Translations under genes and position numbers: made by a program
Part shown: positions 5,498 to 46,807 of the stretch, piece after piece
Layout of the letters: each line of letters opens with the position of its first letter
Numbering within the stretch: the stretch's first letter is position 1
DNA from: a virus
Lineage: Duplodnaviria > Caudoviricetes
Length of the DNA: 47,018 bases
Reading direction: 5' to 3' (one strand)
IMG/VR virus record: IMGVR_UViG_3300005611_000050
Location: 1-47,018 of that record
Notes under the pieces: model-generated
Told to the model about the DNA's origin: nothing
The model's database searches: none
Seen by the model: the letters and a program-made list of their open reading frames with translations, nothing else

Positions 5498-6412
5498 TTA
5501 CGCGGCACCTGGCGAACCGAATACAGCGCGTGGATCCGAGAATCCAAAGCTGTAACGCTCACGCGCCTTGAAGCGCATGTTGCCAGTGTCGAAGTCCGCT
5601 TCCATGTTAGTGGAAAGTGGAGTCCGCTCGAAGTGGACGAATCCACGAGGTGCGTCAGTCATGATGAAGAACGCATCTGGATCTGTCAGGAAGTCGTTGA
5701 CAGCATAGCCGTCAGGCAACATACCCATAGAACGCAAAGCGTTAACATCATTGTCTGCAGTACCAACACGGAGGTTAGATACCATCAGACGCTCTGCGAT
5801 GAACTGAAGCTGACGTGGAATGATCAGCTTAGTGCCGCGCAGTGCAACCTTCAAACCACGCTCATCGACGAAACCAGCGATGCTGATCAATGCGTCTTCG
5901 AGTGAAGTTTCGTTAAGGTCGGCAGCAGTTGAAGGCTCGTTAGAGAACGTGCCACCATTTGTCAGTGGGTGGTCAGTCGCACAAAGCGCCTTACCATCGC
6001 CACCAGCACTCGCACCTGCAGTGAACGCGTTGTTCAATACAGAAGCGGCCTTGACCTGCTTAGTGTGAGCCATTGAACGGGCAAGAGCACGAGTGTAGCG
6101 AGATGACAGACGATCATACAGATTGTCTTCAACCGCTTCTTCAGTGATCGAGAATGCCAGAGCAATAGTCTCGTGGTTGTAACGTGCTGTGTATGCTTCT
6201 TGTGCATCATCAAAGCTGACGGATGAACCTTCAGACTTTGTTGGTGCTGTACCGAAGCCAGACAACATTACTTCTTCTTCAAACGCACGGTCAGAAGATT
6301 CAGTAGTGTAAATCTCAGCGTGTTGATTTTCATACCGAGCGTACTCCATGCCAAATAAGGCATTGAGACCCGGCTCCAGTTCTTTCGCTAATTGAGCGCG
6401 AGAAATAGCCAT
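5498..6412 (-). CDS. Major capsid protein (Mu gpT-like, HK97 fold)
   Basis: 304 aa; MAISRAQL.KELEPGLNALFG start and KARERYSFG..DPR..FGSPG end; follows the scaffold, followed by a terminator. Confidence 0.9.
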   Translation of the reverse strand: MAISRAQLAKELEPGLNALFGMEYARYENQHAEIYTTESSDRAFEEEVMLSGFGTAPTKSEGSSVSFDDAQEAYTARYNHETIALAFSITEEAVEDNLYDRLSSRYTRALARSMAHTKQVKAASVLNNAFTAGASAGGDGKALCATDHPLTNGGTFSNEPSTAADLNETSLEDALISIAGFVDERGLKVALRGTKLIIPRQLQFIAERLMVSNLRVGTADNDVNALRSMGMLPDGYAVNDFLTDPDAFFIMTDAPRGFVHFERTPLSTNMEADFDTGNMRFKARERYSFGFSDPRAVFGSPGAA

Positions 6413-7566: not shown

Positions 7567-8472
7567 CTAGTCCTTAACGTATTTCGCGTATTCTTCAAGC
7601 GGGACACCAAGCTTCTTGGCGATAGCCACCTGAGACGGACTGAGCTTGACTTTCCTGCGCCCTGGTTGTGGTTTTCGGGATGCCGAAGTGTCAGCAGATG
7701 CGACCTGTCCACTTCTCCCATTTTTCTGACCGGCAAACTTGTGCGGAAACTCCACACGAATTTGTCGATCTATTTCATTGTAGTACTCATCGGAAGTAGG
7801 ATCAAACCCTTCTTCTTCGACAAGCTTACGATGAATTCCAAATGCGGCATAAGTCATGACCTCGTCTTGACCAAACCACTCGTTCTTTGTTGCCCAGTCC
7901 TGTGCTCTTGGATCAGGTTCTGGAGCACGCTCTTGTTGTACAGGTTGTTGTACAGGAGCGGCTTGCGGCTCGGATGTACGTTGTACCTGCACGCGCTCTT
8001 GCTGCTGTTTGGCTAGACGATAACGCTCTTGCTCAATCGAGATTCTCGACAGCATTTCCTGAGCTTCAATCATCTTGTCTACGTCGCCACGATCATGAGC
8101 GTCGCGGTACGCTTGCTTGGCAAGATTTTGTTGGTTCTCTAACCGCTGACCGTATTCAGTTAAGTGAGCTTGTTGAGAACTTTGCATCTGAGTCTTCAGA
8201 GTTTCATTCTCTTCGCGTAGCTTTTGAGCTAAACGAACAGCTTCTTCACGGTCACGTTCTTCCTGACGATATTTCTCCGTCAGTTTTTTGATTCGCTTCT
8301 GGACGTTCTTACTATAGTTTTCAAGCTCTTCCCCTGATTGCTCAGGTTCTGAGGTCTCTTGTTTGGCCTCTGCTTCTACAGTATCACCGGTATCGGTATC
8401 GGTATCCGAACCTTCCTGCTCTGGCAGATCAATTTCTACCTCTTCAATTTCATTCTTTTCTTCTTCAGACAT
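7567..8472 (-). CDS. Capsid scaffolding protein
   Basis: 301 aa acidic coiled coil ending LSPSQVAIAKKLGVPLEEYAK; position before capsid genes. Confidence 0.75.
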   Translation of the reverse strand: MSEEEKNEIEEVEIDLPEQEGSDTDTDTGDTVEAEAKQETSEPEQSGEELENYSKNVQKRIKKLTEKYRQEERDREEAVRLAQKLREENETLKTQMQSSQQAHLTEYGQRLENQQNLAKQAYRDAHDRGDVDKMIEAQEMLSRISIEQERYRLAKQQQERVQVQRTSEPQAAPVQQPVQQERAPEPDPRAQDWATKNEWFGQDEVMTYAAFGIHRKLVEEEGFDPTSDEYYNEIDRQIRVEFPHKFAGQKNGRSGQVASADTSASRKPQPGRRKVKLSPSQVAIAKKLGVPLEEYAKYVKD

Positions 8473-8959
8473 TCATCACATCTCCTGGTTCAAGAATCGT
8501 CGCAATGACTTCATCATCGTTAATTATCCGGATCTCACCGCCATCAATCTTGAAGCGAGAACCAGAATAACGCCCAATACACACCCATTCACCTTCCTTG
8601 CACCAAGGATCACAATCGCCGAACTTAGCGGGGTCCTTATACGCCAAAGGTCCAACTTTAAGAACATAAGCAACAACAGTTGCTAGTTGTTCCCGTTGCC
8701 GGATCTCATCTGGGATAAATATCCCACCGTCAGTGGTGGTTTTGCCTTGATATGGCATCACAAGAATTCGCCAACCAGTAGGGTTGGGTAATCTTTCTTT
8801 CAGTGATTTATCGAGGAGGGAGGGGTCTAGGACACGTTTCGACTCTTCAACGTAAGCGTTTTCGAGTGAAGGTCCGTCGGTCTTTTGTTCCTTCGCGGGC
8901 TTCTCAGCCGCTAGACTAGCGGCGACGTGCTCCGGAACTAGCAAAGAGGTCTTCGACAT
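8465..8959 (-). CDS. groES: Co-chaperonin GroES-like protein
   Basis: PTGWRILV...TDGGIFIP...VLKVGP...GEWV...YSG...IINDDEVIATI matches the Cpn10 pattern. Confidence 0.9.
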   Translation of the reverse strand: MSKTSLLVPEHVAASLAAEKPAKEQKTDGPSLENAYVEESKRVLDPSLLDKSLKERLPNPTGWRILVMPYQGKTTTDGGIFIPDEIRQREQLATVVAYVLKVGPLAYKDPAKFGDCDPWCKEGEWVCIGRYSGSRFKIDGGEIRIINDDEVIATILEPGDVMNV

Positions 8960-11415: not shown

Positions 11416-13878
11416 CTATGTCGTGTTACGTCTCATCATGTTCTCTCTCTGCATGGCGATACGTTCCATGTTCACGTCGTTGCGATTATCTGCAATCTCT
11501 TCTTGAGACTCAATTCTAGCAGCATCGGTTGCTGCACGCTGCATCATTTTTTGACGCTCGATCTCGAGATTTGCCTGATCAACCTTAGACCGGCGTTCTA
11601 CATCGGCTGCCTTAATAGCAAGCTCTTGCTGGCGAATAGCAACCAATGGGTCTTGTTCGCCCTGCTGTTGTGGACTGATCTGCTGCATAACCTGAGCAAG
11701 CAGTTCTGCCTGAACCTGAGCAACACGCGTTTCGATCTGCTCTGGTGGGATTTGAGGCTGAACCTGAGCCATCCGTGGATCAATCGCCCCCATTTGAGCG
11801 GCCCCCTGTAATTCAAGAGTCATCTGCTTAATTTCTTCTTCAACCATCATCCGAGCCTTGAATGCAATGTGCTCTTGAATGTGAGCCAAGAACATTCCAT
11901 AAGCTTGTGGCGACGCCTGCACTAACGGTGTCTGCATCAGTACAACGTGAGCCATGATGTGTGCATCATGATCCTGCTCTGGAAACGCCTGTAAAAGCTG
12001 CCCGCTCAATCCACGAGCATTCTCAATTGCCGGATCTGTTGGCTGAGGCTGCGGTGGAGGCGGTAAGATATCGTCGATGTTCTGAACTTCCAATGCCTGA
12101 TACATACGTTTGTACGCCGCATGCAGGTTGTGCATCTCAGGATTAGACTGAGCCAACTGCAACTGAGTCTGCGCGAGTGTTACACGTTGCGCCATCGAGA
12201 AGATGTTCGGGTCAGAAACAGGCAGTACATCAACACGGTCGTCAAAGTCTGACTGCATGATCGTGGCATCACCACCCGGTACCATATACGGGTACTGCTG
12301 TGGCATGTAATCACGAATGATGCCTGCTAACAGACGGAACTCGGTCTTCTGTGCGTAATGCAACCGCTTATGGATCGCACTCATCACCTTCATGCCGCGC
12401 TCAAGTAGCGCGACTGTTGTACCTACAGGCTGTTGCTGTGATCCCGGTGAGCCGGTTTGCTGGTCGGCAATGGAAACAAACCGCCGCCCAGATTCAATAA
12501 GGACTCCCAAAAGTTGCGCCAACGTCGCCGACGGTTCTTTGTACGGGAGTGGGATAATTGAATTCCGTATGTCTCCGCCAGGAGCGTCAATGTCCCTGAA
12601 CTCGCCAGGGGCAATCGGTTCATCGTCGTTACGAACGCGGATACCCCGCGCCTTGAATCCGGAAGGTAAGTTCGCCAATGTACCCGCATCGATCAACTGC
12701 CTCAAAATTGAAGTGGCTGCTTTGCCCAGCCCTCCAATCATGTGGATCAGGCCGAACCCATAGAACCCCAATCCCGGCAAGAACTTGTAATGAACGAAGT
12801 ACTGTTGCTTACGCTTCAGCGGGTCGCCTTCTTCATAGTTCCTGCGGATGGACAGCACCTCGCCCGAACTTTGGTCGATGGTGACAATATACGGAAGCTT
12901 GACCCCCGTAGGCTCGCCATTCTGATCTAAGTCCTCGAAACCTTCAATATCTAAATCCGTGTGGATTTCAAAAATCGTCAGGACATCATCTGATGATTCT
13001 GATTTGTCTATTCCCTGAAGCTCGCGAACCTTGTCTTTAACTGTGTCATCTTCTTCGTCATAGCCAGTCTGAAGATCAACATCTCTGTAGAAACCAACAA
13101 CTTGTAGCTTGCGAACTTGATTTTCGTCCATGCGAAGAATGTGTGTAACCCGCGATGAAGTTGCAAGATCACTCGTCGTGTAGGGGACAACCAAGTCTTC
13201 GGCAGGCACAAATCGAGATACCGGTCTTTGTTTTGTTTCATCGTAGTAAACCTTTTTAAACGTCGATCCACACAGCGGTAAATAGAACAGCATCTGATCC
13301 GTGTCAGGATCGTACTCTTCCATCACCTCAGTCACCATGTAGTTCATGAAGTTCTTAACACGGGTAGCCTGATCTTCGATCTCTGGAGTCTTCGCGCCAA
13401 TAACTTCAGCCCGAACTGGCCCGCCCGCTGGCAGTAATTCTTTGTATGCCTGAGCTTGGAACTGAGTGACCGACTCAGCAATAATCGGATGCGTTACCCC
13501 TGATGCCCCTTGAAAGGGTTGGCTACGCTCTTTTGTTTTGACTCCGAGCAGGTCGAGACCTTGAGTGTAGGCTTCTTGCCACTCGCTTCGTGAATCTTGA
13601 TCGTCTTCGACTCTTGCTCGAAGGTCGCTCGATATTTCACCCAAGATTGATTCATCAAGAATTTCAGCAAGGTTGGCATTATGGTCGTATTCTTCTGTGA
13701 CAACTTCGGCTCCTTCCTCTCCCATCAATGCTTGGATGATCGCGCCACCCGCGCCATCGTCCATAATTTCAGCACCGCCAGCAAAATCCTCCGGCTGTGA
13801 AATATCCACTTCCATTCCTGGGACCGCTTCGATGGAGCTGTCCACCATGCCTTGCATCATATTCGAGGGAACTGACAT
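11416..13878 (-). CDS. Portal protein
   Basis: 820 aa directly after TerL; LPLCGSTFKKVY and GFYGFGL motifs; long Gln-rich helical C-terminus (P22-like barrel). Confidence 0.88.
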   Translation of the reverse strand: MSVPSNMMQGMVDSSIEAVPGMEVDISQPEDFAGGAEIMDDGAGGAIIQALMGEEGAEVVTEEYDHNANLAEILDESILGEISSDLRARVEDDQDSRSEWQEAYTQGLDLLGVKTKERSQPFQGASGVTHPIIAESVTQFQAQAYKELLPAGGPVRAEVIGAKTPEIEDQATRVKNFMNYMVTEVMEEYDPDTDQMLFYLPLCGSTFKKVYYDETKQRPVSRFVPAEDLVVPYTTSDLATSSRVTHILRMDENQVRKLQVVGFYRDVDLQTGYDEEDDTVKDKVRELQGIDKSESSDDVLTIFEIHTDLDIEGFEDLDQNGEPTGVKLPYIVTIDQSSGEVLSIRRNYEEGDPLKRKQQYFVHYKFLPGLGFYGFGLIHMIGGLGKAATSILRQLIDAGTLANLPSGFKARGIRVRNDDEPIAPGEFRDIDAPGGDIRNSIIPLPYKEPSATLAQLLGVLIESGRRFVSIADQQTGSPGSQQQPVGTTVALLERGMKVMSAIHKRLHYAQKTEFRLLAGIIRDYMPQQYPYMVPGGDATIMQSDFDDRVDVLPVSDPNIFSMAQRVTLAQTQLQLAQSNPEMHNLHAAYKRMYQALEVQNIDDILPPPPQPQPTDPAIENARGLSGQLLQAFPEQDHDAHIMAHVVLMQTPLVQASPQAYGMFLAHIQEHIAFKARMMVEEEIKQMTLELQGAAQMGAIDPRMAQVQPQIPPEQIETRVAQVQAELLAQVMQQISPQQQGEQDPLVAIRQQELAIKAADVERRSKVDQANLEIERQKMMQRAATDAARIESQEEIADNRNDVNMERIAMQRENMMRRNTT

Positions 13879-15350
13879 CAGTAATACTCTCTCACTCTAG
13901 GAATATCGTTTTCTTCATCGCCGTCTTCACCGTCTAAGAAGACAAACCCACCTTGACGGAAGCGAATCAACGCCATCGTCATACTATCGACCAAGTCATC
14001 ATAGTCACCCATCGGAAATGCAGCGCATTCTTCAATGACTTCGTCGGCAAAAGACTTTTCAGGTGCCCAAACCATACCCGCTTCAAATAGCGGTGCGACG
14101 GTGTGCATCCGCGTGACCTTATCACGGCCTTTCGACGGAGTATAATTCACAACAGGTATCCCTGTCCTCCGCAATTCATCACTGAGCGGCGTACCTGTGG
14201 CCTTGGCTTCAATCAAAACCATGTCTGGTTCCCAGTAATCATGCTCTTCAAGGGCCACTTCCTTCAATTCGGGGAAGTTCCATCGTCCTTTCCGCGCATC
14301 CAATAGGATAATATGGTCTGAACCTCCTTCCTCTGGCTCAAATATTCCCCATGTGGTAATGGCGGAATAGTCCGCGGTCTCTTTCTTCGAGAACGCAGTA
14401 TCATAGCTCTGCAAGACATACTTGATCGGCGGGACATCCTCTTTTTCCCAGACACGCCACCATTCCTTCTTAACAATCGCCCCTTCAGACGCTGTTGGTT
14501 GCTGTTGCCACTGTGCATTCCACTTCGCAAGCGGAAGAGCAGCCTTAACCTTGAGCAAATCGTCCTTATTCCAGAACTCAGGCCACAATGGTTCGTCCGA
14601 TGGCATGATTGCAGGGAACTCAACGACCTCCCACTCGTCCGACATCACGTCTTCGCCCTGTGCTTTGAGCAAACGACCGGTCAAATCCTTGGTTCCCCAC
14701 CGAGTCATGACCACAATGATGGCTCCGCCCGGTTGCAAACGCTGTCGAGGACCAGATGTGTACCATTCGTAAGCATGATCGAACGCAGTTTCGGATAATG
14801 CGTCTTGTTCCGAGTGCGGATCGTCAATAATAAACAAATCAGCACCACGACCAGTCACCGCGGCACCCACACCAGCGGCAAAATATTCGCCGCCCTCGGC
14901 AGTTCCCCATCGACCGGCTGCTTTGTCATCAGATTTTAAGTGAGTATTTGTGAAAATATCACGATAAATCTCAGAACCCATCAAATCACGCACTTTCCTA
15001 CCAAAACGCACAGCAAGTTCTGTATTGTGCGTGGCCTGAATGATCTTCAACTTCGGATTTCGGCCCAAGAACCATGCTGGCATGAGATAAGAAGCGAATT
15101 CAGACTTGGAATGACGCGGTGGCATGTTAACAATTAGCCGTTTCAGTTCACCTTTTGCAATGCGTTCCAGTTTTTCTGCAATGATTCGGTGGTGACGGCC
15201 CTCAATGAAGCCGTCATAGACGTGATGAACGAAGGGCATGAACTGATCTTGCGCTTTCTCACGCGTTTCGAGGCGGATTTCCGCCTCTTTCAGTGAGAGA
15301 ATCTCCTTGAGAACCTCTTCAGGTAACGCTTCGAGTGCTGCTTGGTCCAT
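13878..15350 (-). CDS. terL: Terminase large subunit
   Basis: Walker A variant NMPPRHSKS, Walker B FIIDDP, coupling motif VMTRW, nuclease SYDTA and DDLVD. Confidence 0.95.
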   Translation of the reverse strand: MDQAALEALPEEVLKEILSLKEAEIRLETREKAQDQFMPFVHHVYDGFIEGRHHRIIAEKLERIAKGELKRLIVNMPPRHSKSEFASYLMPAWFLGRNPKLKIIQATHNTELAVRFGRKVRDLMGSEIYRDIFTNTHLKSDDKAAGRWGTAEGGEYFAAGVGAAVTGRGADLFIIDDPHSEQDALSETAFDHAYEWYTSGPRQRLQPGGAIIVVMTRWGTKDLTGRLLKAQGEDVMSDEWEVVEFPAIMPSDEPLWPEFWNKDDLLKVKAALPLAKWNAQWQQQPTASEGAIVKKEWWRVWEKEDVPPIKYVLQSYDTAFSKKETADYSAITTWGIFEPEEGGSDHIILLDARKGRWNFPELKEVALEEHDYWEPDMVLIEAKATGTPLSDELRRTGIPVVNYTPSKGRDKVTRMHTVAPLFEAGMVWAPEKSFADEVIEECAAFPMGDYDDLVDSMTMALIRFRQGGFVFLDGEDGDEENDIPRVREYY

Positions 15351-17596
15351 TAACTAACCGGGAAAAGGGGCGAAAACCGTTTCGATGCCTGATAGCTCGG
15401 ACGTAAACGTGTCGGTGCCAAGCTCGGCAGTCCCGTGTAAGCATACGAAATTGGTCCACGCTGCTGATATTGATAGGGCTGAACAAGCACTCGACCCTGA
15501 TCATCAACGACAGGAGCTTCTGGCGGTTGCTCAACCGGAGGTGGTAAAATTTGTTGACCACCGTCACCGCCTTGCATCTCTCGTTGTTGCTCGTCTATTG
15601 TACGCTGGCGAGCGTACAGTTCCTCAATATTCTCAGGTGTCCCACCCGTGAAAATATCTCCTATCCGATCCATCATGCCTGCACTGTCATAAACAACATT
15701 GCCTCTGGCATCATAAGCCGCGGTCCGACCACCTTCACCAATCGGTCCGCCAGCAGTCACTACATCTAATCCTTGCGGGTTGTAGTTAGCTGTGCCTTCA
15801 GGAACTGGACTGCCATCAATCGTACGAATACCGCGCTCCGCAATTGCATTGGCTAAAGCAGCGTCTGGATTGAAAAGCGCGTCCGCAACTCCTTCAAGCA
15901 CTCCAACACCCGTCGGAATCTTCGCGCCAAATACATCAATTGAGCCCGGAAGTCCTGTGTCAAAACCAAACTGCTTGTCTCTGTAAGCTTCTGCTCGTGC
16001 AGCTTCAAGATTGGCTTGAGCTTCCGCTAACGTGTAATCCGGGGCCCGAGGATCTTGGCCCGCGATTTCTCTTCTTTCGGCTGTGGCACCTATAGGAATG
16101 CCAGTCATTTCTGCATCAACACCTTGCTGAGACATACGCTCGGCATCTGTCAAAGTTGCAGCCTGTGGAGTGGCTATGCCACGCCCGCCATAAATTGCTT
16201 CGTCTTCTGGCTGCTCTTGGAATTGATTTGTGTCCGCGATCTCATATTCCCCGGGACTGAAGTAACCTTCACGATCCTTCTGCATTGCCCTATCTAAAGT
16301 CACCGGAGTTCTGTTTGCAGCAGCAGTTGATCTAGCAATTAAATCATTAGCTAACTGCATCTGCTCAAGGTCAAACTGCTGTGGGCTGTCGGACATGACT
16401 CCCGCAGAAATGCGCGGGTCGAAAGTTCCTTGGACCGAGGGCTGAACATCAAAAGTCTGTGACCCCGTCAAAGCCAGCTCTTGCGGTGTCCGACTGGTCG
16501 AGACCGCTGGACCGGTTAACCCAATAATCCCCGCAACTTCTTGTGCCGGAACACCAGTTTCCAGCTCAACTTCTTTCGATACTTGAGATAACACCTGTTC
16601 TGCAGGAGTTCCGGGTTGTGCTTGAGGCTGAAGACCTCCTTCTAACACGTTGCTTGGTTCAAAGACATCAATGTCGTCCATGAACAAGCTGCCACCCATT
16701 ACTGGATCGGCGCGTACGCCTTCTGCCACACGTCCGGGGACAGCTTGGTCCAAAATACCAGAAGCAATTTGCGCGACTTCAGGGGTTAGTCCGGGAGTGA
16801 CCTGACGAGCAGCCTCAACTTTTGCCGGTTCCAATGCCGCTTGAGTTATTGCCGTGCCTTGAGGTCCTTGGTCCGCGGCCCGCGAACCGGGAGTCGTGCC
16901 AAAACCTTCACCAAAATCTGTTCCTGCCGCACCCCTAATCGCATCCATAATCGAAGAAGTGTCAGTGCCTGCAGCCTTAGCAGCTTCTTGAACTGAACGG
17001 CTAGACGTGACAGGTGTCCCATCCCTTGAGCGGACAATGTTTCCATTGTTCGTTACAAATACATCCGAAGGAACTCCGGCCTTGGCCGCCGCAGCTTCTG
17101 CTTCAGTTTGCTTTGCAGTAGTTCCTGCGGAACCAGCTCCAAGTGCAGGACCTTCAGCGGGGCCAATACTTGGCCCGGGGCCATAGCCAATTGGCCCAAA
17201 GCCGCGGCCTGCCGCTCCACCTGGGTCAAATACATTTACACCCGCGGCAATTGAACCTACCGCTTGGTCATAACTATCAGCGACGCTTTGTGAAGGGCTG
17301 CCGAAACCGGAACGGTCTACACCCGGAGTCGCATCAATAGAGTTGGGAATACCGTCGCCGTCATTATCGTTTAACGAACCACCTCGGCCAACACCGCCAG
17401 ACATGCCAGAAGTGACAGATTGGCCTGCGGCTTGTTGTTGAGACATGTTTTCAAAGTCAGCGGAAATCTGATCTAGCTCATTCATCTGAGCGTCTTGCGT
17501 ACTCGGTCCGCCCGTGTCGCTGTCAGAAGGCCCACCAAAGCAGAAAAGCATTTCTTCCATTGGGTTGTCAGAAGGGTGTAAGGGGTTCAGTCTCAT
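15350..17596 (-). CDS. 748-aa acidic Gly/Ala/Pro-rich protein; probable virion/ejected protein and candidate acylation substrate
   Basis: Overlaps the acyltransferase stop (ATGA) and the terL start (TAATG); CFGG near the N-terminus; DNDGDGIPNSIDATPG Ca-binding-like motif. Confidence 0.75.
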   Translation of the reverse strand: MRLNPLHPSDNPMEEMLFCFGGPSDSDTGGPSTQDAQMNELDQISADFENMSQQQAAGQSVTSGMSGGVGRGGSLNDNDGDGIPNSIDATPGVDRSGFGSPSQSVADSYDQAVGSIAAGVNVFDPGGAAGRGFGPIGYGPGPSIGPAEGPALGAGSAGTTAKQTEAEAAAAKAGVPSDVFVTNNGNIVRSRDGTPVTSSRSVQEAAKAAGTDTSSIMDAIRGAAGTDFGEGFGTTPGSRAADQGPQGTAITQAALEPAKVEAARQVTPGLTPEVAQIASGILDQAVPGRVAEGVRADPVMGGSLFMDDIDVFEPSNVLEGGLQPQAQPGTPAEQVLSQVSKEVELETGVPAQEVAGIIGLTGPAVSTSRTPQELALTGSQTFDVQPSVQGTFDPRISAGVMSDSPQQFDLEQMQLANDLIARSTAAANRTPVTLDRAMQKDREGYFSPGEYEIADTNQFQEQPEDEAIYGGRGIATPQAATLTDAERMSQQGVDAEMTGIPIGATAERREIAGQDPRAPDYTLAEAQANLEAARAEAYRDKQFGFDTGLPGSIDVFGAKIPTGVGVLEGVADALFNPDAALANAIAERGIRTIDGSPVPEGTANYNPQGLDVVTAGGPIGEGGRTAAYDARGNVVYDSAGMMDRIGDIFTGGTPENIEELYARQRTIDEQQREMQGGDGGQQILPPPVEQPPEAPVVDDQGRVLVQPYQYQQRGPISYAYTGLPSLAPTRLRPSYQASKRFSPLFPVS

Positions 17597-17997
17597 GCGA
17601 TCATCCAGCCAAATCTGTTCTGTTCAGTACGGTATATCCTAAACTTGGTCCCCTTCGGGAACTCTCTCCGCAACGCTCGAACAATATTCCGGCAGAACCC
17701 GAATGGAGCAGCGAAGTCAATTGCCCATAGAGTACCATCTTCTGACTCGAAATCACTAGCAAGGATACTGGACGGCTTCTCCATGTATGCCTTTTCGCGG
17801 TCCGGGGGCAGATAAGTCCAAGTAAATATCCCTGCAGGACGGTTTTGATTATCGTAAATCACTCGCAACCGGTCATTCTTGATCGCCGCAATAAAGTAAT
17901 TGTTGATATGTTCAAGGTCCGCGGACCGGTGATAGTGGCTGCAACGTAATACGAGCAGTGCGTCTAGCAATAATTGCGTATTGGAATGAAAATACAT
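17593..17997 (-). CDS. RTX toxin-activating lysine acyltransferase family protein (HlyC/TAAT-like)
   Basis: From ATG 17997 (134 aa): S20-x-x-H23, P.G..TW.YL, W.ID94F.APFG and F...R align with HlyC SPLH, SWA.L, WFIDWIAPFG and FRAIR. Confidence 0.88.
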   Translation of the reverse strand: MYFHSNTQLLLDALLVLRCSHYHRSADLEHINNYFIAAIKNDRLRVIYDNQNRPAGIFTWTYLPPDREKAYMEKPSSILASDFESEDGTLWAIDFAAPFGFCRNIVRALRREFPKGTKFRIYRTEQNRFGWMIA

Positions 17998-18034
17998 TGT
18001 AATTTTTTCTCGGACCTCGGGACTCCTATTGCTT

Positions 18035-18063
18035 ATTCTGCACAACTTCTTGCTGCGGGACAA
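18035..18063 (-). promoter_or_regulatory. Putative sigma70 promoter of the acyltransferase-terL-portal operon
   Basis: TTGTCC-17 bp-CAGAAT on the minus strand. Confidence 0.45.
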
Positions 18064-18266
18064 GGGTACCCGGGCTCCAATGGAAAAACCTGGCATTGAA
18101 TCTATAGAACTAACTGCAAGGACCGTGCCAAGTTTGTACCGGTCTCCATTTAGGGGGTGCCCCTCGACGCGCACGCGGTGCGTGTACACTTTTTGACCAA
18201 GTTACCCCCAGCCCTCGAGCGTTGTGCACTGCACCAAACGTATTAGACCAATTAGTACATAAATAC

Positions 18267-42000: not shown

Positions 42001-43222
42001 TACCTTTGTTTTCTTCCAACTCAGCAAGCAGTTTAGCTTTTAGTTTAGGGTCAAGTACTTCTTCAGAGACATTTTCGAGTTGGCGAGAAAGTATGTCGGT
42101 CAAGCCATCGATCTGGTCACGCATTGTTTGCCCTGCGGAAACAACTTCTTTCCCGTATACGTCGAGTGCCTGAGTATCGCCTTCCAAAAACCTAAGAAGA
42201 TCGTCGTGTGCTTTGGTGATCCCACCTTTACCCAGTCCAAATACACCTAATATGCCCTGACCCTTAACAACTTTCTTTGCTGCTGTATCAAACGCGGCAA
42301 GGTTTTTGGACGCTGCGTCTGTGAGTTCGTCAACCAAGGCTTCTGTTGATGTGAGGTCTTCGTACAATTCTCTCGGCGTTAGGCCAGCGGAAGTAAACCA
42401 TTTTTTCATGGTCTTGTTTTGTGCGAACTTATCGCCAAGCGCACTAAAACCTCTGCTGATTACGTTTGCAGCACTGCTAACTCCGGGTACTTGTGCGGCA
42501 CCACGAGCTACTCCACCAATAACAGGGAAAGCCACTTCAAAGGCACCTGAAATGCCTGCGCCTTCAGCACCTACTCTTAACTTGTTTCTGAACCGACGAG
42601 CGGCTTCATCGCGGCCCATTAACCCTGTGTCTTCTTCGGTGTTTAATGCTTCTGGTAATGCATCAAACCCGTCAGAAATGGTTGCTTGCCCGTCCTTTGA
42701 TACGAAAAGGTCCGCGACCCCAGCAGCAACGCTAGTGGTAACAGCCTGACGAGGACGAGAACTTAGTAGTGCTTTACCTGTTGCACTGGATCCGAGTGCT
42801 TCTGCAGCTCTGCCTAGCTTGCTGGTTGACTCAAGAACCTTCCCGCCTTGAGCGACACGGCTGGCTCTTGAAAGAAAACCAATAACAGGGATTGCGGCCC
42901 CGGCAAAGTTGACGATGCTTTCAGTCACTTGACCGGCGGTGCCTTGTGGACGAATGCCTAATGTGTCACGAACACTTTCAAACGCCCCGGTAACATCACG
43001 AGACGTGTTTGTATCAAAAGCGTAATCGATACCAAGAGCACCTAGTTCGGTGATCCCTTGTGGTATGGCGAGAAGCCCAGAAGCAGCTCCTTTTGATATG
43101 TCTTCAAAAGTACCAACCTCTTCTTCGGGCTGAGTTGGGGCTGGAGCTGCTGTGTCTCCAAACATTGTTTGGGTTTGAGACGGGGTTGTTACAGCCTCGT
43201 CCCCAAACATTGTCTTAGCCAT
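39068..43222 (-). CDS. Large internal virion/ejection protein
   Basis: 1384 aa, helical; last of four coupled ejection-type genes; TMFGD repeats at both ends. Confidence 0.7.
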   Translation of the reverse strand: MAKTMFGDEAVTTPSQTQTMFGDTAAPAPTQPEEEVGTFEDISKGAASGLLAIPQGITELGALGIDYAFDTNTSRDVTGAFESVRDTLGIRPQGTAGQVTESIVNFAGAAIPVIGFLSRASRVAQGGKVLESTSKLGRAAEALGSSATGKALLSSRPRQAVTTSVAAGVADLFVSKDGQATISDGFDALPEALNTEEDTGLMGRDEAARRFRNKLRVGAEGAGISGAFEVAFPVIGGVARGAAQVPGVSSAANVISRGFSALGDKFAQNKTMKKWFTSAGLTPRELYEDLTSTEALVDELTDAASKNLAAFDTAAKKVVKGQGILGVFGLGKGGITKAHDDLLRFLEGDTQALDVYGKEVVSAGQTMRDQIDGLTDILSRQLENVSEEVLDPKLKAKLLAELEENKGSYLRRIYNGALDPEKVIDGSIKETPMYKSAVGEVAKILRNRDKSYVKSGIMKELRELDDYTADAARMIDGELLGDINDAGVDAVQAIRNRKESMESGAKALGADGRKPLYEISEGLLKDRKAFLDKAPSFRALINQSRDPKELYLRTVGDLSNIVASNNLYDNFAATYRQGIAGARETINAGGRPLVVSSSNLSTSDADFLVGQGYKQLGTFDKKSAFGGKYGSLSGDYVAPEVYSALTIPMRAQTGLGEALAISLQAKGLSQMAKTVLNPLAQVRNFLSGSFFLGANGNVMRNMELGDSWRLTWGKAADLADDDFRKFYEMTGKLGVRDQNLQVNEFRQLLREGKDLEYSGRMAAGLQTILDKTPGVRGLQKIYSGTDTFWKISGMLAEKAKYAAAFRKAGINLDDSQAPKFAAAVESLIRSGVAPRSSGLAGVVDDVHFFDLLSSDIVKATMPTYSRVPEAIKQIRRIPLVGNFVAFPAEIVRNTANIFNQGLKEMSFKATPELVEAVGEKAARQMQKEIRAIGAQRMTSYVGMAYVVPRSAQGAAMELTGTTAEDMEALNRMVPEYLRGHILIPLNKPEKGKLQYIDFSYMNPYDFALSPARQALRIYNEKGEVSSNEVANLTAGLWQGVKTFFEPFAGESLIAERIQDVLPQNYFGRGGKTGFGAEIYGKSEDTGTQLRRSMNHILGGFNPGLIEQFALERGGEFVPGRATRAAFGIPGRQGQESSTKEELLTAVTGLRRMDLDLPNTLFYRGYEYSDLRTDAVGNFSTVAKRNDATEQEIIDTYRRTNQDLYRAQAKLMQVVEAARQLGMSDGDIRYALKKEANVGNRELNAVMRGVFEPIKISTNLRQDIAREAFMRKQPRLVTRLPEAELAKIRNEMFGIKLRPEEPVETQTTMFGDTPAPATAPRTTMFGDTSAPAPAPAPAPRPQTAPRTTMFGDTVAPAPSPASQPRNEVSPILVPDPVTRATFGAK
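39168..39308. repeat. Intragenic direct repeats (3 copies)
   Basis: GTATCCCCAAACATAGTTGTC at 39168, 39243 and 39288, encoding TTMFGDT. Confidence 0.85.
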
Positions 43223-45060
43223 TACGGCTTGACTCCAGGCACTCCATTAGCATCAACGTATTCTGTCCCAGAAGGTAAAGCGTCATACTCTTCTTGAGTT
43301 GTTACAGTTTTAGGTCCCGCTGCAGCAAAAGTTCCTTCAGTGATATAGCGCATCTGCTGTTCTAAAGCAGTTTGCCCTGCAGGAGTAAGACCTCCTTGTT
43401 CGTCAAAGTACTGTGCCCCTGTTGTTCCAGCCTTTTGTAGATCAACTAGTCTCTGCAGGGCGTCCGTTCTCGTCCGCTCTGGACTACCGACCTGCCCCGG
43501 AAGCACAGCCTTGGTTTTCTGCTGTGCCAGCATGTCTGATATTTTGAGTGCATTTGGCATGATTACGTTATCAAAGGTCTCTTGATCTCCAATATCTAAT
43601 CCCTGCTCTTGTGCTTGATACACAGCCATCGGCATTGCTTCATCAAAGTTTGAAAATAATGCATACTGAAGTTTAAAGGCTCTGTCTTGCTTTGCTTCGT
43701 CACTGGTGTTTGCAAGTTGAAGCATTAAGTTGGAACGCGTTGCCGCAATTTTGGCAACCGTTTGAGCCTTTGCTTCGTCAGAAGCTTTAACTGTCTTCAT
43801 CCAGTCGTACTTCAAGCCCTTGTCATACTTTTCCATTTCACGTTCCCACTGGATTTGAGCGCGTTCGTCTGCCATCGCATTGGTTAGTGCAAAAGATTCG
43901 AGCTTATCTTTACGCTCTTTACGAGCTTCAGCAGTCTTTCTGAAGTTTTCCGTACCAGCAGCGGCACCCTTGGCGATATTGCTAAGAGCGTTTGGACTAT
44001 CTCCGGATGCGATCAAGAAGCCCATCATTGCTAAGTTGTAGCCGTCGATCTTTTTGTCTTCGGCTGTGTCGCCTTTAAAAAGTCCAAGTTCTGCGGCAAG
44101 TTCTTTGTTCTTGTTAAACCGTTCTTTTAACGTCAGCTTTTCGTCGGGCTTTTTCTTGTTGGCAACTTCAAGATACACGTCGTTTTTGTCAATCTCAGAA
44201 GTTAAAGATTCTGCAGCATTAACAACGTCTTGAGCAAAGTTAGAGGCGCTCTTATCTATCTCACCAACCTGTGCTTCAAGCGTTGTAGGAGCATTCTGAG
44301 CGACAGATTTTTTGACTTCAGCTTTAGTGGTCTTAGGTTTAGGTTTAGGTTTAGCCACAGTGGTTCCAGGCCCCTGCGTATTCGCTTCAAGTTCTGCAAT
44401 ACGGTCTGGATCTGTTATCTGTCTTTGCTCTGCCAACTGTCTGTCGGCTTCAGCTTGCATTGCTGCTTTCTTGTCTTCAAAGAATCCTGGGATTGTCTGA
44501 TCAAAAGGAATACTGCCTTCAGTCATTTGCATGGCACGAGCAATGCGCTCAGGATCTGTGTTTCTATAGCCAACAGTACGTTTACCCATAAACGGGGCGT
44601 CTTCTGTACCCGGAACAGTCATAATTCCTTGCTGGGCTGAGTCAAGACCTGCGTCGTCAAGACCCATTGTTCCTGATGAACTAAGAACAGGAGGAATATC
44701 AGGAATTAAAAGATCTGCTGCTGGTGTTGTAGGAGCAGGGACAGACCTCATCGAAGGTGTTAGACCTGCGTCATCTGACGTTCCAACTCCACTTAACCCT
44801 AAATTAACCCCAGCACCAGCTCCTTGACCTGACGGCTGAGGGAAAATTGTTCGTAAAGGATTTGCCATGAAGTTTCTTATATCTCCGGCACTTACTCCAA
44901 ACAACGTGGTTGGACGAACGCCTTGTGGACCAGAACCGTTAGCAAATTTTTGTACTGTCTGCATTAACTGAGGGCTAGATGCCATGATCCCGCCCATTTG
45001 ATTAAGCTTGTTCCGAGCGTTACGCGGCTTAAACAGTTTGCGGTTGTTTACATTGTTCAT
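43222..45060 (-). CDS. Internal virion/ejection protein
   Basis: 612 aa; low-complexity N-terminal half, hydrophobic LAMMGFLIASG segment, coiled coil. Confidence 0.65.
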   Translation of the reverse strand: MNNVNNRKLFKPRNARNKLNQMGGIMASSPQLMQTVQKFANGSGPQGVRPTTLFGVSAGDIRNFMANPLRTIFPQPSGQGAGAGVNLGLSGVGTSDDAGLTPSMRSVPAPTTPAADLLIPDIPPVLSSSGTMGLDDAGLDSAQQGIMTVPGTEDAPFMGKRTVGYRNTDPERIARAMQMTEGSIPFDQTIPGFFEDKKAAMQAEADRQLAEQRQITDPDRIAELEANTQGPGTTVAKPKPKPKTTKAEVKKSVAQNAPTTLEAQVGEIDKSASNFAQDVVNAAESLTSEIDKNDVYLEVANKKKPDEKLTLKERFNKNKELAAELGLFKGDTAEDKKIDGYNLAMMGFLIASGDSPNALSNIAKGAAAGTENFRKTAEARKERKDKLESFALTNAMADERAQIQWEREMEKYDKGLKYDWMKTVKASDEAKAQTVAKIAATRSNLMLQLANTSDEAKQDRAFKLQYALFSNFDEAMPMAVYQAQEQGLDIGDQETFDNVIMPNALKISDMLAQQKTKAVLPGQVGSPERTRTDALQRLVDLQKAGTTGAQYFDEQGGLTPAGQTALEQQMRYITEGTFAAAGPKTVTTQEEYDALPSGTEYVDANGVPGVKP

Positions 45061-46070
45061 CGCTGCTGTCCTAATCCAAAGATGTTGCCCATCGAATCAA
45101 AGATCCCAGACTGGGACAATCCTGCGAGACCTAATCCAAGCCCTGCAATCTGAGAGGTAGTGGACGGAGACGGTGCAGTAGATGATGTCAACGTAGATGA
45201 TGTTGATGGCACACCACGGAAGATGTCAGACATAAAGCTCAAACGCTGAAGAGGCTCGTACTGACGTTCAAGTTCCGTGGCCCGCGCTGCTTCGAGCCCG
45301 GCTTGAGCTTGTTGCTGCTCTAATCCACCTAATGACAACAATGCGTTTACGTCACGCTGTTGCCCAGTCTGTGCCATTTCACCAAGGGCAGCCTGCGACA
45401 GACCCGTCTTCGCAAGACTAGATCCGAGGGCCCCGATCCCTTGACCGAGCTGACCGAACAATTGTGCCGCGGACTGCTGACGTGCCATCTGATTCTGAAA
45501 GGCATTCTGTGCTTGCTGTTGTGCTTGTTGGAATCCGGCGGAACGCATTTGAGCACCAGTTCGTGCTTGCTGTTCCATGACGTTACGGGCCAGTTCTTGT
45601 TCAGCAACCGCTTGACGAGAACCGCCAAAGGCTCCGCCACGAACCGCCGCACCACGAACTTGCTGTCCTTGAATGTCCCCTTGACGTGCAATATCTTGCT
45701 GAGTCCGTGCAATCACGTCCTCCATATACGGGTCCATAAATGCTTGCGCGGAACGAGGGTCGTACCCGCCCATTGTACCCATCAAGATTGGAGCACCACT
45801 TAACGCAGTTCCAATGCCTTGTTCCAAGGCCCCCGCACCTGCACCAAGTGTGCCTTCTGCGGCTTGAAGCATTGGAGCGTAAGCACCAACACCAGTATAG
45901 CCAAGGTTGATTGCTTGTTGCTGGCCGGGAGAAAGAGCCGCGACCTGACGCTCTGGTATAAATGTAGGCTCACCCGCACGGGCTTGCGTCGAGGCCAGCA
46001 AATCCTTCAGGAATTTTTCTTGATACTCGGGTAAAACCGTTAGCTGTTCGCTGCGTACTGTTTCAACCAT
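45057..46070 (-). CDS. Gln/Gly/Ala-rich ejection (pilot-like) protein
   Basis: 337 aa; FMDPY...V and GAFGGSR motifs; Gly-rich hydrophobic C-terminus. Confidence 0.7.
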   Translation of the reverse strand: MVETVRSEQLTVLPEYQEKFLKDLLASTQARAGEPTFIPERQVAALSPGQQQAINLGYTGVGAYAPMLQAAEGTLGAGAGALEQGIGTALSGAPILMGTMGGYDPRSAQAFMDPYMEDVIARTQQDIARQGDIQGQQVRGAAVRGGAFGGSRQAVAEQELARNVMEQQARTGAQMRSAGFQQAQQQAQNAFQNQMARQQSAAQLFGQLGQGIGALGSSLAKTGLSQAALGEMAQTGQQRDVNALLSLGGLEQQQAQAGLEAARATELERQYEPLQRLSFMSDIFRGVPSTSSTLTSSTAPSPSTTSQIAGLGLGLAGLSQSGIFDSMGNIFGLGQQR

Positions 46071-46807
46071 TACACCATCGCCTCATACTTCTTCATCATT
46101 TCGTACATGCGAGCTGCACCACCTGCACCATCAACGGCTTTCTTTGTCATTACAAATTCCCCGTCCGAGAGCCGAGCTTCTTGGACCGGCTGACCACCCT
46201 GATAAATCATAGCAGGAATATCATCACTGGTCCCGGTTCCCGGGCCTTCAATAAAGCCTCCTTGAGCGAAAGACATAGCCGTTTCCCTGCTGTAATCGTA
46301 GCGAGGAACAACATCTTGCCCAACGTAGCTTGTACCTTCGCCTGTTTCGCGAAGCCTTCTTAATCTATCTGTTTCTGGAATCTCTTCTGGTTCTTCTGTC
46401 GCACCAAGCAACATAGAGCCAAGCAGTAAATTTCCAGGAGTCAGTAATTTTGCAATACCAGAAGCAGCCGCTTGTGACTTAGCAATCGGAGCCGCTGCCG
46501 CCGCCGCTTGGCTACCTTCCATTGCTGCTAAGGCTTTTTCTGCTTGAGCCGCTTGTGTCGCCGCAGCAGTTTGACCTGCCGCTTGTGTCGCCGCAGCAGT
46601 AGATCCAACACCCGCAGCCTGCAAACCGCCGCCAGCAATACCAGCTACGGCAGCATTTTTAACAGCGTCTTTGAGGTCCCCGCCAGCAAGAAGAGTACCA
46701 ATACCAGAACCTAGCGCGGCATTAACAACACTACCAGCAATGGGCCCCAGACCAAAAAAGCCTGCTGCTGCACCTGCAACTGGTAAAAGCTTCTTTAGAA
46801 AACTCAA
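46070..46807 (-). CDS. Ejection protein with glycine-zipper N-terminus and tape-measure-like C-terminal domain
   Basis: TTG start with GGAGG RBS; FAQGG.I.GPGTGTSD.IPA...LSDGEFV. Confidence 0.7.
   Translation of the reverse strand: MSFLKKLLPVAGAAAGFFGLGPIAGSVVNAALGSGIGTLLAGGDLKDAVKNAAVAGIAGGGLQAAGVGSTAAATQAAGQTAAATQAAQAEKALAAMEGSQAAAAAAPIAKSQAAASGIAKLLTPGNLLLGSMLLGATEEPEEIPETDRLRRLRETGEGTSYVGQDVVPRYDYSRETAMSFAQGGFIEGPGTGTSDDIPAMIYQGGQPVQEARLSDGEFVMTKKAVDGAGGAARMYEMMKKYEAMV

Follow-up and report, generated by a model that had tools for sequence, protein, structure and literature searches.

Why would a tailed phage carry, among its late genes, an acyltransferase of the kind known from toxin activation, and which site on which protein would such an enzyme modify? 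The question is raised by a stretch of 47,018 nucleotides (IMG/VR virus record IMGVR_UViG_3300005611_000050; Caudoviricetes), referred to at its full length as ‘the window’, in which a 134-residue open reading frame (ORF) of the HlyC type (hlyC; 17593..17997, minus strand) lies directly before the gene of a 748-residue protein (the ‘partner’; 15350..17596, minus strand). Across related loci the enzyme and a short N-terminal tag on its partner travel together as a cassette, at varied positions and onto unrelated protein bodies, and comparison of the sequences points to this tag, in preference to a lysine, as the target of the enzyme.

If this is true, lipid modification is added to tailed-phage virion proteins, the N-terminal amine becomes a new acceptor for an enzyme family hitherto associated with the lysines of toxins, and a short transferable lipidation tag would serve protein engineering. 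The cassette is found both in HTVC023P-like and in HMO-2011-like phages (with CRP-235 as a cultured carrier), groups reported to be among the most abundant phages of the ocean (bioRxiv 10.1101/2019.12.14.876532).

The HlyC-type enzyme

By sequence and by predicted fold, the 134-residue ORF is a member of the HlyC family of toxin-activating acyltransferases (TAATs), standing outside any RTX system. Pfam HlyC (PF02794) recognises it at 63.4 bits against a curated cut-off of 25 (E 2.5e-17) and is its only Pfam family at E up to 0.01, with no match to PF11090 or PF11039, while a sequence search of solved structures returns the single match ApxC (4whn, E 4.5e-14). The AlphaFold model (mean predicted local distance difference test score, pLDDT, 90.3) likewise has ApxC as its top Foldseek match (E 8e-10, template modelling score 0.81), the next match outside the TAATs following at E 0.024. 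H23 and D94, the latter within WAIDFAAPFG, align with ApxC, so that the modelled fold retains an intact His/Asp dyad, the catalytic pair of TAATs (PMC8510554). The codons of the full pattern, all on the minus strand, are those of S20 (17938-17940), H23 (17929-17931), D94 (17716-17718) and R123 (17629-17631).

These residues are widely conserved. A phmmer search with the enzyme gave 268 representatives at 50% clustering, and among 156 distinct phage cores the His is kept in 148, an acid in 153 (Asp in 110, Glu in 43) and the Ser in 137; the Arg position is basic (Arg or Lys) in 153. A quick and weakly supported tree of 150 TAAT rows, from which no donor or order of events was read, places the window enzyme in a group of 49 rows, mostly short proteins, that holds 15 of the 17 phage-locus rows; the neighbourhood data discussed below leave out deeper TAAT clades.

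The gene is tightly coupled to its surroundings, the hlyC/partner junction reading GC-ATGA-GA and the partner/terL junction (terL encoding the terminase large subunit) GT-TAATG-GA. Its start codon was assigned from homologues, because the frame remains open for 64 further codons upstream of the ATG (to a GTG at 18189). The intergenic stretch in question (17998-18189) is similar in five related loci (L001, L002 and L011-L013), with the frame open over about 64 codons, and the frame is closed in L006; it is more likely to be a conserved DNA element than coding sequence. No RTX nonapeptide occurs in any of the six frames of the window, and no type I secretion, transporter or acyl carrier protein (ACP) family was met among the 48 + 25 window ORFs scanned. 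The original prediction, made from the letters of this DNA, thus proved accurate in its description of the locus: a 134-residue protein with the TAAT pattern that family profiles would assign to HlyC and structure comparison to ApxC, joined to its neighbours by ATGA and TAATG overlaps, in a window free of RTX nonapeptides and type I secretion genes.

The partner tag and its cassette

The related loci came from scans with the enzyme, five of viral sequences and one each of metagenomes and genomes, and from a single scan with TerL; 51 bacterial loci (L240-L290) and loci in which the enzyme runs off the contig were left out. When the enzymes of the 243 loci that remained were clustered at 90% identity, 89 clusters resulted, and in 87 the partner could be read. 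A Gly-rich start, defined as at least four Gly in eight residues within the first 45 residues of the next gene, is found in 64 of these 87 clusters versus 14 of 252 ORFs taken as controls within those loci, and in 14 of 22 clusters when clustering is done at 50%.

The tag occurs in two forms: a leader of 14-38 residues (the longest being about 38), mostly ended by Phe and followed by the Gly-rich start, or a Met followed by the same start with no leader. A junction was placed in 82 of the 87 clusters, 53 of them leader-bearing and 29 leaderless. Gly stands at +1 in 48 and 21 of these, respectively, the leaderless starts being M-G (21), M-S (six) and M-A (two). Phe occupies position -1 in 44 of the 53 leader-bearing clusters, a count that is partly circular because the junction rule, chosen post hoc, favours an aromatic residue there (its placement in L113 is spurious); position -2, which the rule leaves unconstrained, shows Cys (20 clusters), Val (19) and Thr (seven). 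No such Cys is present in any of the 29 leaderless partners.

In the window, the partner begins with a leader of 20 residues (17537..17596, minus strand) that ends in Cys19-Phe20, after which a cut is predicted; Gly21-Gly22-Pro-Ser-Asp (17522..17536, minus strand), the sole such junction in the window, would then form the mature N-terminus and is the candidate acyl acceptor. Among 26 distinct window-type leader DNAs, differences at codon positions 3, 1 and 2 number 3021, 1529 and 816, the substitution pattern of a leader that is translated and under selection at the protein level. The possibility that the leader is merely a misplaced start is ruled out by the ATGA coupling together with this synonymous variation.

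The relationship of the two forms is seen where enzymes 90-92% identical to one another are followed in some loci by leader-CF-NGD partners and in others by leaderless M-SGD partners, whose starts fit M-[GSA]-G. Because such similar enzymes pair with both, the sequence after Phe aligns with the sequence after Met, and removal of the leader after Phe would be the simplest reading of both forms. The leaders of HMO-2011-type partners are closer to window-type leaders than are shuffles (17 of 36 exceed the 95th percentile), which is suggestive only, and a complex prediction of the enzyme with partner residues 1-35 (score 0.02, as against a mark of 0.32) is not evidence either way.

Enzyme and tag are found together at six genomic positions. 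The cassette stands before terL in the window type; after the portal gene in L045 and L103; between capsid and adaptor genes in L061 and L069; in L082 within an ejection-type module, where a phrog_308 gene stands two genes earlier; and before an HMO-2011-type protein in L292 and L316, the L316 cassette lying after a tail fibre gene and before a transglycosylase-like gene. The partners in L082 and L316 match no family. The cassette follows the tail fibres in CRP-235, and in L070 it comes last among the late genes. The original prediction placed the enzyme and its neighbour at the head of a terL-portal operon; the TAATG coupling to terL is present here, but since the cassette is found at six positions among relatives the link is incidental, and an obligatory link to terL is ruled out. 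Two further observations concern these slots. L082 (2863-5524) carries two tandem pairs, a phrog_308 gene ahead of a protein starting MCMGGGG and then hlyC ahead of a protein starting MSGDAEGG. In L167 and L168 (about 560-1950), whose TerLs are 89% identical, unrelated genes of 236 and 223 residues are inserted between the partner-like ORF and terL, which marks the slot as a variable region.

The HMO-2011-type partner family allows the association to be read against a constant body. A search by that conserved body yielded 28 loci (two of them cut, and three without a visible upstream gene, one of these three being tagged). The leader and Gly run are present in 11/11 loci where the enzyme immediately precedes the partner and in 0/12 where another gene does, a contrast to be read as a cassette and not as many independent events, because the 11 tag-positive loci fall mostly in one clade and the two genes are adjacent. 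The tag is also absent from all five cultured HMO-2011-type homologues whose genes are not immediately preceded by hlyC.

The window partner is acidic, rich in Gly, Ala and Pro, poor in Lys, and hypervariable in its body; it belongs to no family in Pfam, PHROG or NCBIfam, has no match in cultured phages, and in the Atlas has a model of pLDDT 0.38 with no lead above 0.80. It contains nine Lys, no Gly-Lys and one Cys. Among 28 partners from the terL slot, the C-terminal motif YTG-x3-L-x-P-x2-L-x-P ... P743 (15368..15454, minus strand) is conserved in every one, with Y720, T721, G722, L726, L731, P733 and P743 invariant, and C19-F20 is kept in 22. The best Lys column reaches 11/28, and the best window Lys, K541, 9/28; some enzyme partners carry one to four Lys in 400-700 residues. 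Of 242 phage-type loci, not one has two or more RTX repeats. With no Lys column conserved, the idea of a conserved Lys or Gly-Lys acylation site on the partner is ruled out.

Measured against these results, the original prediction was right that the neighbour has about nine Lys and no Gly-Lys, and an internal Lys site on that neighbour like those of HlyA and CdiA finds no support. Its fallback, a non-canonical N-terminal site, is on sequence grounds now the best-supported option. The proposed association with a ‘CFGG-type’ neighbour is much better conserved than chance would allow, as the 64/87 and 14/252 counts indicate, but the Cys in it is not universal.

Proposed acylation of a freed N-terminus, weighed against other readings

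These observations suggest N-terminal acylation of the adjacently encoded protein by the enzyme: the acceptor would be a Gly freed by removal of the leader or Met, the donor host acyl-ACP, and the product a protein carried inside the virion or ejected from it. Taken as a whole, this reading falls a little short of an even chance, and its steps differ in strength. The HlyC-fold enzyme would recognise the N-terminal tag of the neighbouring protein; that the tag is its substrate is quite likely, given how the two covary. The 20-residue leader would be cut after Phe20 to expose Gly21, and the leaderless sister forms tilt the balance slightly towards leader removal and the new alpha-amine as acceptor. 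A fatty acyl chain would be moved from host acyl-ACP onto that Gly, donor and chain being reasonably probable by analogy with the chemistry of the family. The lipid-tagged partner would then be packed in the virion, ejected at infection and brought into contact with the host envelope; the position of its gene makes an internal or ejected protein, with a lipid that aids envelope engagement, marginally the better guess. A bolder extension is tentative and rather doubtful: a portable cassette, resembling those of ribosomally synthesised and post-translationally modified peptides (RiPPs), of acyltransferase, cleavable leader and Gly-rich tag, graftable to any virion protein and anchoring ejected proteins in the host envelope as the phage counterpart of N-myristoylated entry proteins, in which case the slot of T7 gp13 and P22 gp14 would hold true acyltransferases.

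A number of observations weigh against N-terminal fatty acylation. The column of ApxC Asn35, which we take to be a catalytic residue of the active site, is occupied by Tyr34 in the window enzyme and by Tyr (93), Leu (43) or Phe (10) in the 156 phage cores, seven of which also have Tyr for the catalytic His, besides the 43 with Glu for Asp. Neither a phage-encoded ACP nor a leader protease was recognised in the 73 window ORFs (Pfam, PHROG), the missing protease being the adverse point, and no hlyC lies within 6 kb of terL in four cultured HTVC023P-type relatives or in MinM2. The window partner, with its start GGPSD, itself misses the Gly-count threshold, yet shows the same junction; L113 has no tagged neighbour, L123 is apparently truncated and the L070 partner is frameshifted. 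In HTVC115P, the enzyme carries Tyr in place of the His and its gene is followed by that of a protein with 43 Lys, whose homologue in HTVC103P stands without a neighbouring hlyC. For the 11 tagged HMO-2011-type loci, mostly one clade, the fact that enzyme and tag are neighbours would be enough to keep them together. The TAATs described in PMC8510554 acylate internal Lys and not alpha-amines, and an amber fragment of P22 gp7 could be sequenced from its N-terminus (PMC8402733), which points to a free, probably unblocked amine in this nearest analogue. Finally, a short acyl cap could suffice, because TAATs interchange with acetyltransferase-type GNATs.

That interchange was seen in the best 80 of 601 confirmed TerL loci, where a TAAT lies upstream in 19 and a GNAT in 10, never both, and where one or the other is present in 21 of the 26 loci with at least 3 kb of upstream sequence. 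The GNAT profile was built from eight of these slot genes, and independent support comes from Pfam PF00583 (above cut-off in 5/7 tested) and phrog_1249 (2/2 tested). A Gly-rich start follows 8/10 GNATs, seven with Cys-containing junctions, and two GNATs lie directly before terL. The carriers have TerLs 89-97% identical, the same slot and homologous partners: those of L174 and L162 are each 67% identical to the window partner, over its residues 517-747 and 34-129. Because the chemistry of the TAAT family is known, unlike that of the GNAT-like genes of other podoviruses, the role of this slot is directly testable.

The reading that draws most on this exchange is that the same N-terminal target receives a short, acetyl-like cap, which would protect the disordered partner or license it for packaging, with no membrane anchor. 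Two families swapping before homologous partners, and slot GNATs about 31% identical to acetyltransferase-annotated genes of SP6 and SIO1, both speak for it; but that annotation does not fix the acyl donor of the slot GNATs, and characterised TAATs move C10-C16 chains from acyl-ACP (PMC8510554), so that we regard a short cap as unlikely, if the least unlikely of the alternatives.

Slightly less likely still is acylation of an internal Lys, whether one of the non-conserved Lys of the partner or one on another, Lys-rich virion protein. This would agree with the chemistry of the family, in which the context of the site is poorly conserved (PMC8510554), with the 43-Lys protein behind the HTVC115P gene, and with the small late proteins of 26-28% Lys that the window encodes; it is opposed by the lack of any Lys column above 11/28 and the scarcity of Lys in some partners, and gives no account of a Lys-free N-terminal tag that comes and goes with the enzyme.

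A further candidate acceptor, Cys19, would be modified either by S-acylation or, after a cut before Cys, by N-acylation. The residue is invariant in the 26 window-type leader DNAs (a set selected for CFG) as well as being kept in most terL-slot partners, the GNAT-slot partners keep a Cys too, and T7 gp6.7 and gp14 begin Met-Cys. Cys as a universal acceptor is nevertheless ruled out by the survey, in which it holds position -2 in 20/53 leader clusters only, where Val and Thr also occur, and is missing from all 29 leaderless ones; we consider modification of Cys19 improbable.

No better is the chance of a non-catalytic assembly factor whose fold binds the leader or tag and hands the partner to procapsid or protease, a role consistent with the Pfam label of PF11090 (T7 gp13, in the same gene-order slot) as ‘probable scaffold protein’ and with His-to-Tyr variants that still precede tagged partners, but at odds with retention of the His in 148 and an acid in 153 of 156 highly divergent cores and with a slot filled by two different acyltransferase families.

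The phage, its relatives and known systems

The phage in which N-terminal acylation is proposed is probably an HTVC023P-like podovirus, represented by part of its genome. The window, a whole contig with a GC content of 49%, encodes a podovirus-like set of PolA, primase, helicases, GroES, TerS, TerL, portal, capsid, adaptors and ejection module (Pfam, PHROG). Its terL (13878..15350, minus strand; phrog_38, E 9e-109), coupled to the partner gene, is closest within the phage collection to those of DSL-LC04, HTVC027P, 023Pt_psg01 and HTVC023P (54-62% identity), and the portal gene follows (11416..13878, minus strand; phrog_1216, E 1.5e-51). PolA, helicase, GroES and a TerS apart from TerL may belong to a gene set shared with HTVC023P-type podoviruses. 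Because no tail nozzle or tail fibre was recognised among the window genes (Pfam, PHROG), the genome is probably incomplete, its 47,018 bases comparing with the 57.6-61.5 kb of the four phages whose TerLs match best, and gene absences are therefore valid for the window only. The GroES co-chaperonin gene (8465-8959) lies inside the head operon, a trait given for HTVC023P-type phages (bioRxiv 10.1101/2019.12.14.876532). Promoter-like sites (one, 1.4 expected) and terminator-like sites (three, 1.2 expected, standard deviation 1.1) support no inference. Several late proteins carry the motif [FYM]-[AS]-x-GG (FAQGG, FSSGG, FAAGG), often near the C-terminus (window 46070-46807 and 43222-45060; loci L005, L006, L065 and L070), which is possibly a capsid-loading signal.

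Among cultured marine podoviruses, hlyC is annotated in HTVC115P (gp46) and CRP-235 (gp30). CRP-235 gp29 starts MGGGGGD and has four Lys in 491 residues; a second protein of that phage, gp25 (L003:12056-14590), encoded five genes downstream of hlyC, starts MGFWSDTF and continues with GGG, and is a possible second substrate. In the accessible text of bioRxiv 10.1101/2019.12.14.876532, HlyC occurs once, as a figure abbreviation. For phage TAATs, a full-text literature search with little coverage of subscription journals turned up neither a function nor a substrate nor a tag, and no description of fatty acylation of such a partner start in phages.

Bacterial relatives were also met. In Rhodobacteraceae-type genomes (L254, L256, L257, L264, L265, L268, L270, L273, L274, L276, L278, L280-L283, L286, L287 and L289, with the match near 6001 in most), an orphan hlyC-like gene lies 1-11 nucleotides before, or overlaps, that of a 286-324-residue, mostly Lys-poor protein; 15 of these 18 partners start Met-Gly, all 11 tested contain a Hint_2 domain, and several of the enzymes look divergent at the His position. 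Hedgehog-type dual processing is an analogy for an acyltransferase beside a self-processing Hint protein. In a Sneathiella metagenome-assembled genome (L240:5953-12349), hlyC precedes an RTX-repeat protein of more than 1971 residues whose N-terminus, about 24 residues and then Cys-SGGDADG, resembles the phage tag; this pair is possibly a bacterial relative of the phage cassette.

The window enzyme shares with HlyC, CyaC and ApxC (PF02794; 4whn) its family, fold, Ser/His/Asp/Arg pattern and a gene directly before the presumed substrate. It differs in its length (134 residues as against 183 for the ApxC chain), in its replaced Asn column, in a partner with no conserved Lys and in its place in a phage late operon, in a window with no RTX repeats or secretion genes; none of the adjacent RTX protoxin and type I secretion genes of the RTX toxin activation system (CABD type) was found there. 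With the slot of T7 gp13 (PF11090) and P22 gp14 (PF11039), both presumably GNAT-fold proteins, it has in common a small gene immediately ahead of what may be a virion or ejection protein, although the family is different and the enzyme matches neither profile; GNATs of the SP6/SIO1 type (phrog_1249) replace the TAAT in close relatives of the window phage. Two analogies concern only the manner of working, since enzymes and hosts differ: the N-myristoylated entry proteins of non-enveloped eukaryotic viruses, in which an N-terminal Gly is acylated for membrane entry, and the RiPP lipopeptides with GNAT maturases, in which a leader is followed by an acylated N-terminus.

A closer parallel for the substrate is P22 gp7, encoded after gp14, from which the host protease OpdA cuts a 20-residue leader to leave the new start KGGKG (PMC8402733), much as a cut is predicted after the 20 residues of the window leader, ahead of a Gly-rich start. 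A parallel for the enzyme is CdiC of class IV contact-dependent growth inhibition systems (PMC8510554), a TAAT acting on a non-RTX substrate whose acceptor feature covaries with the enzyme; in CdiA, however, the covarying feature is an internal residue, Lys1467, whereas in the window type it is an N-terminal leader with a Gly-rich start, the candidate target.

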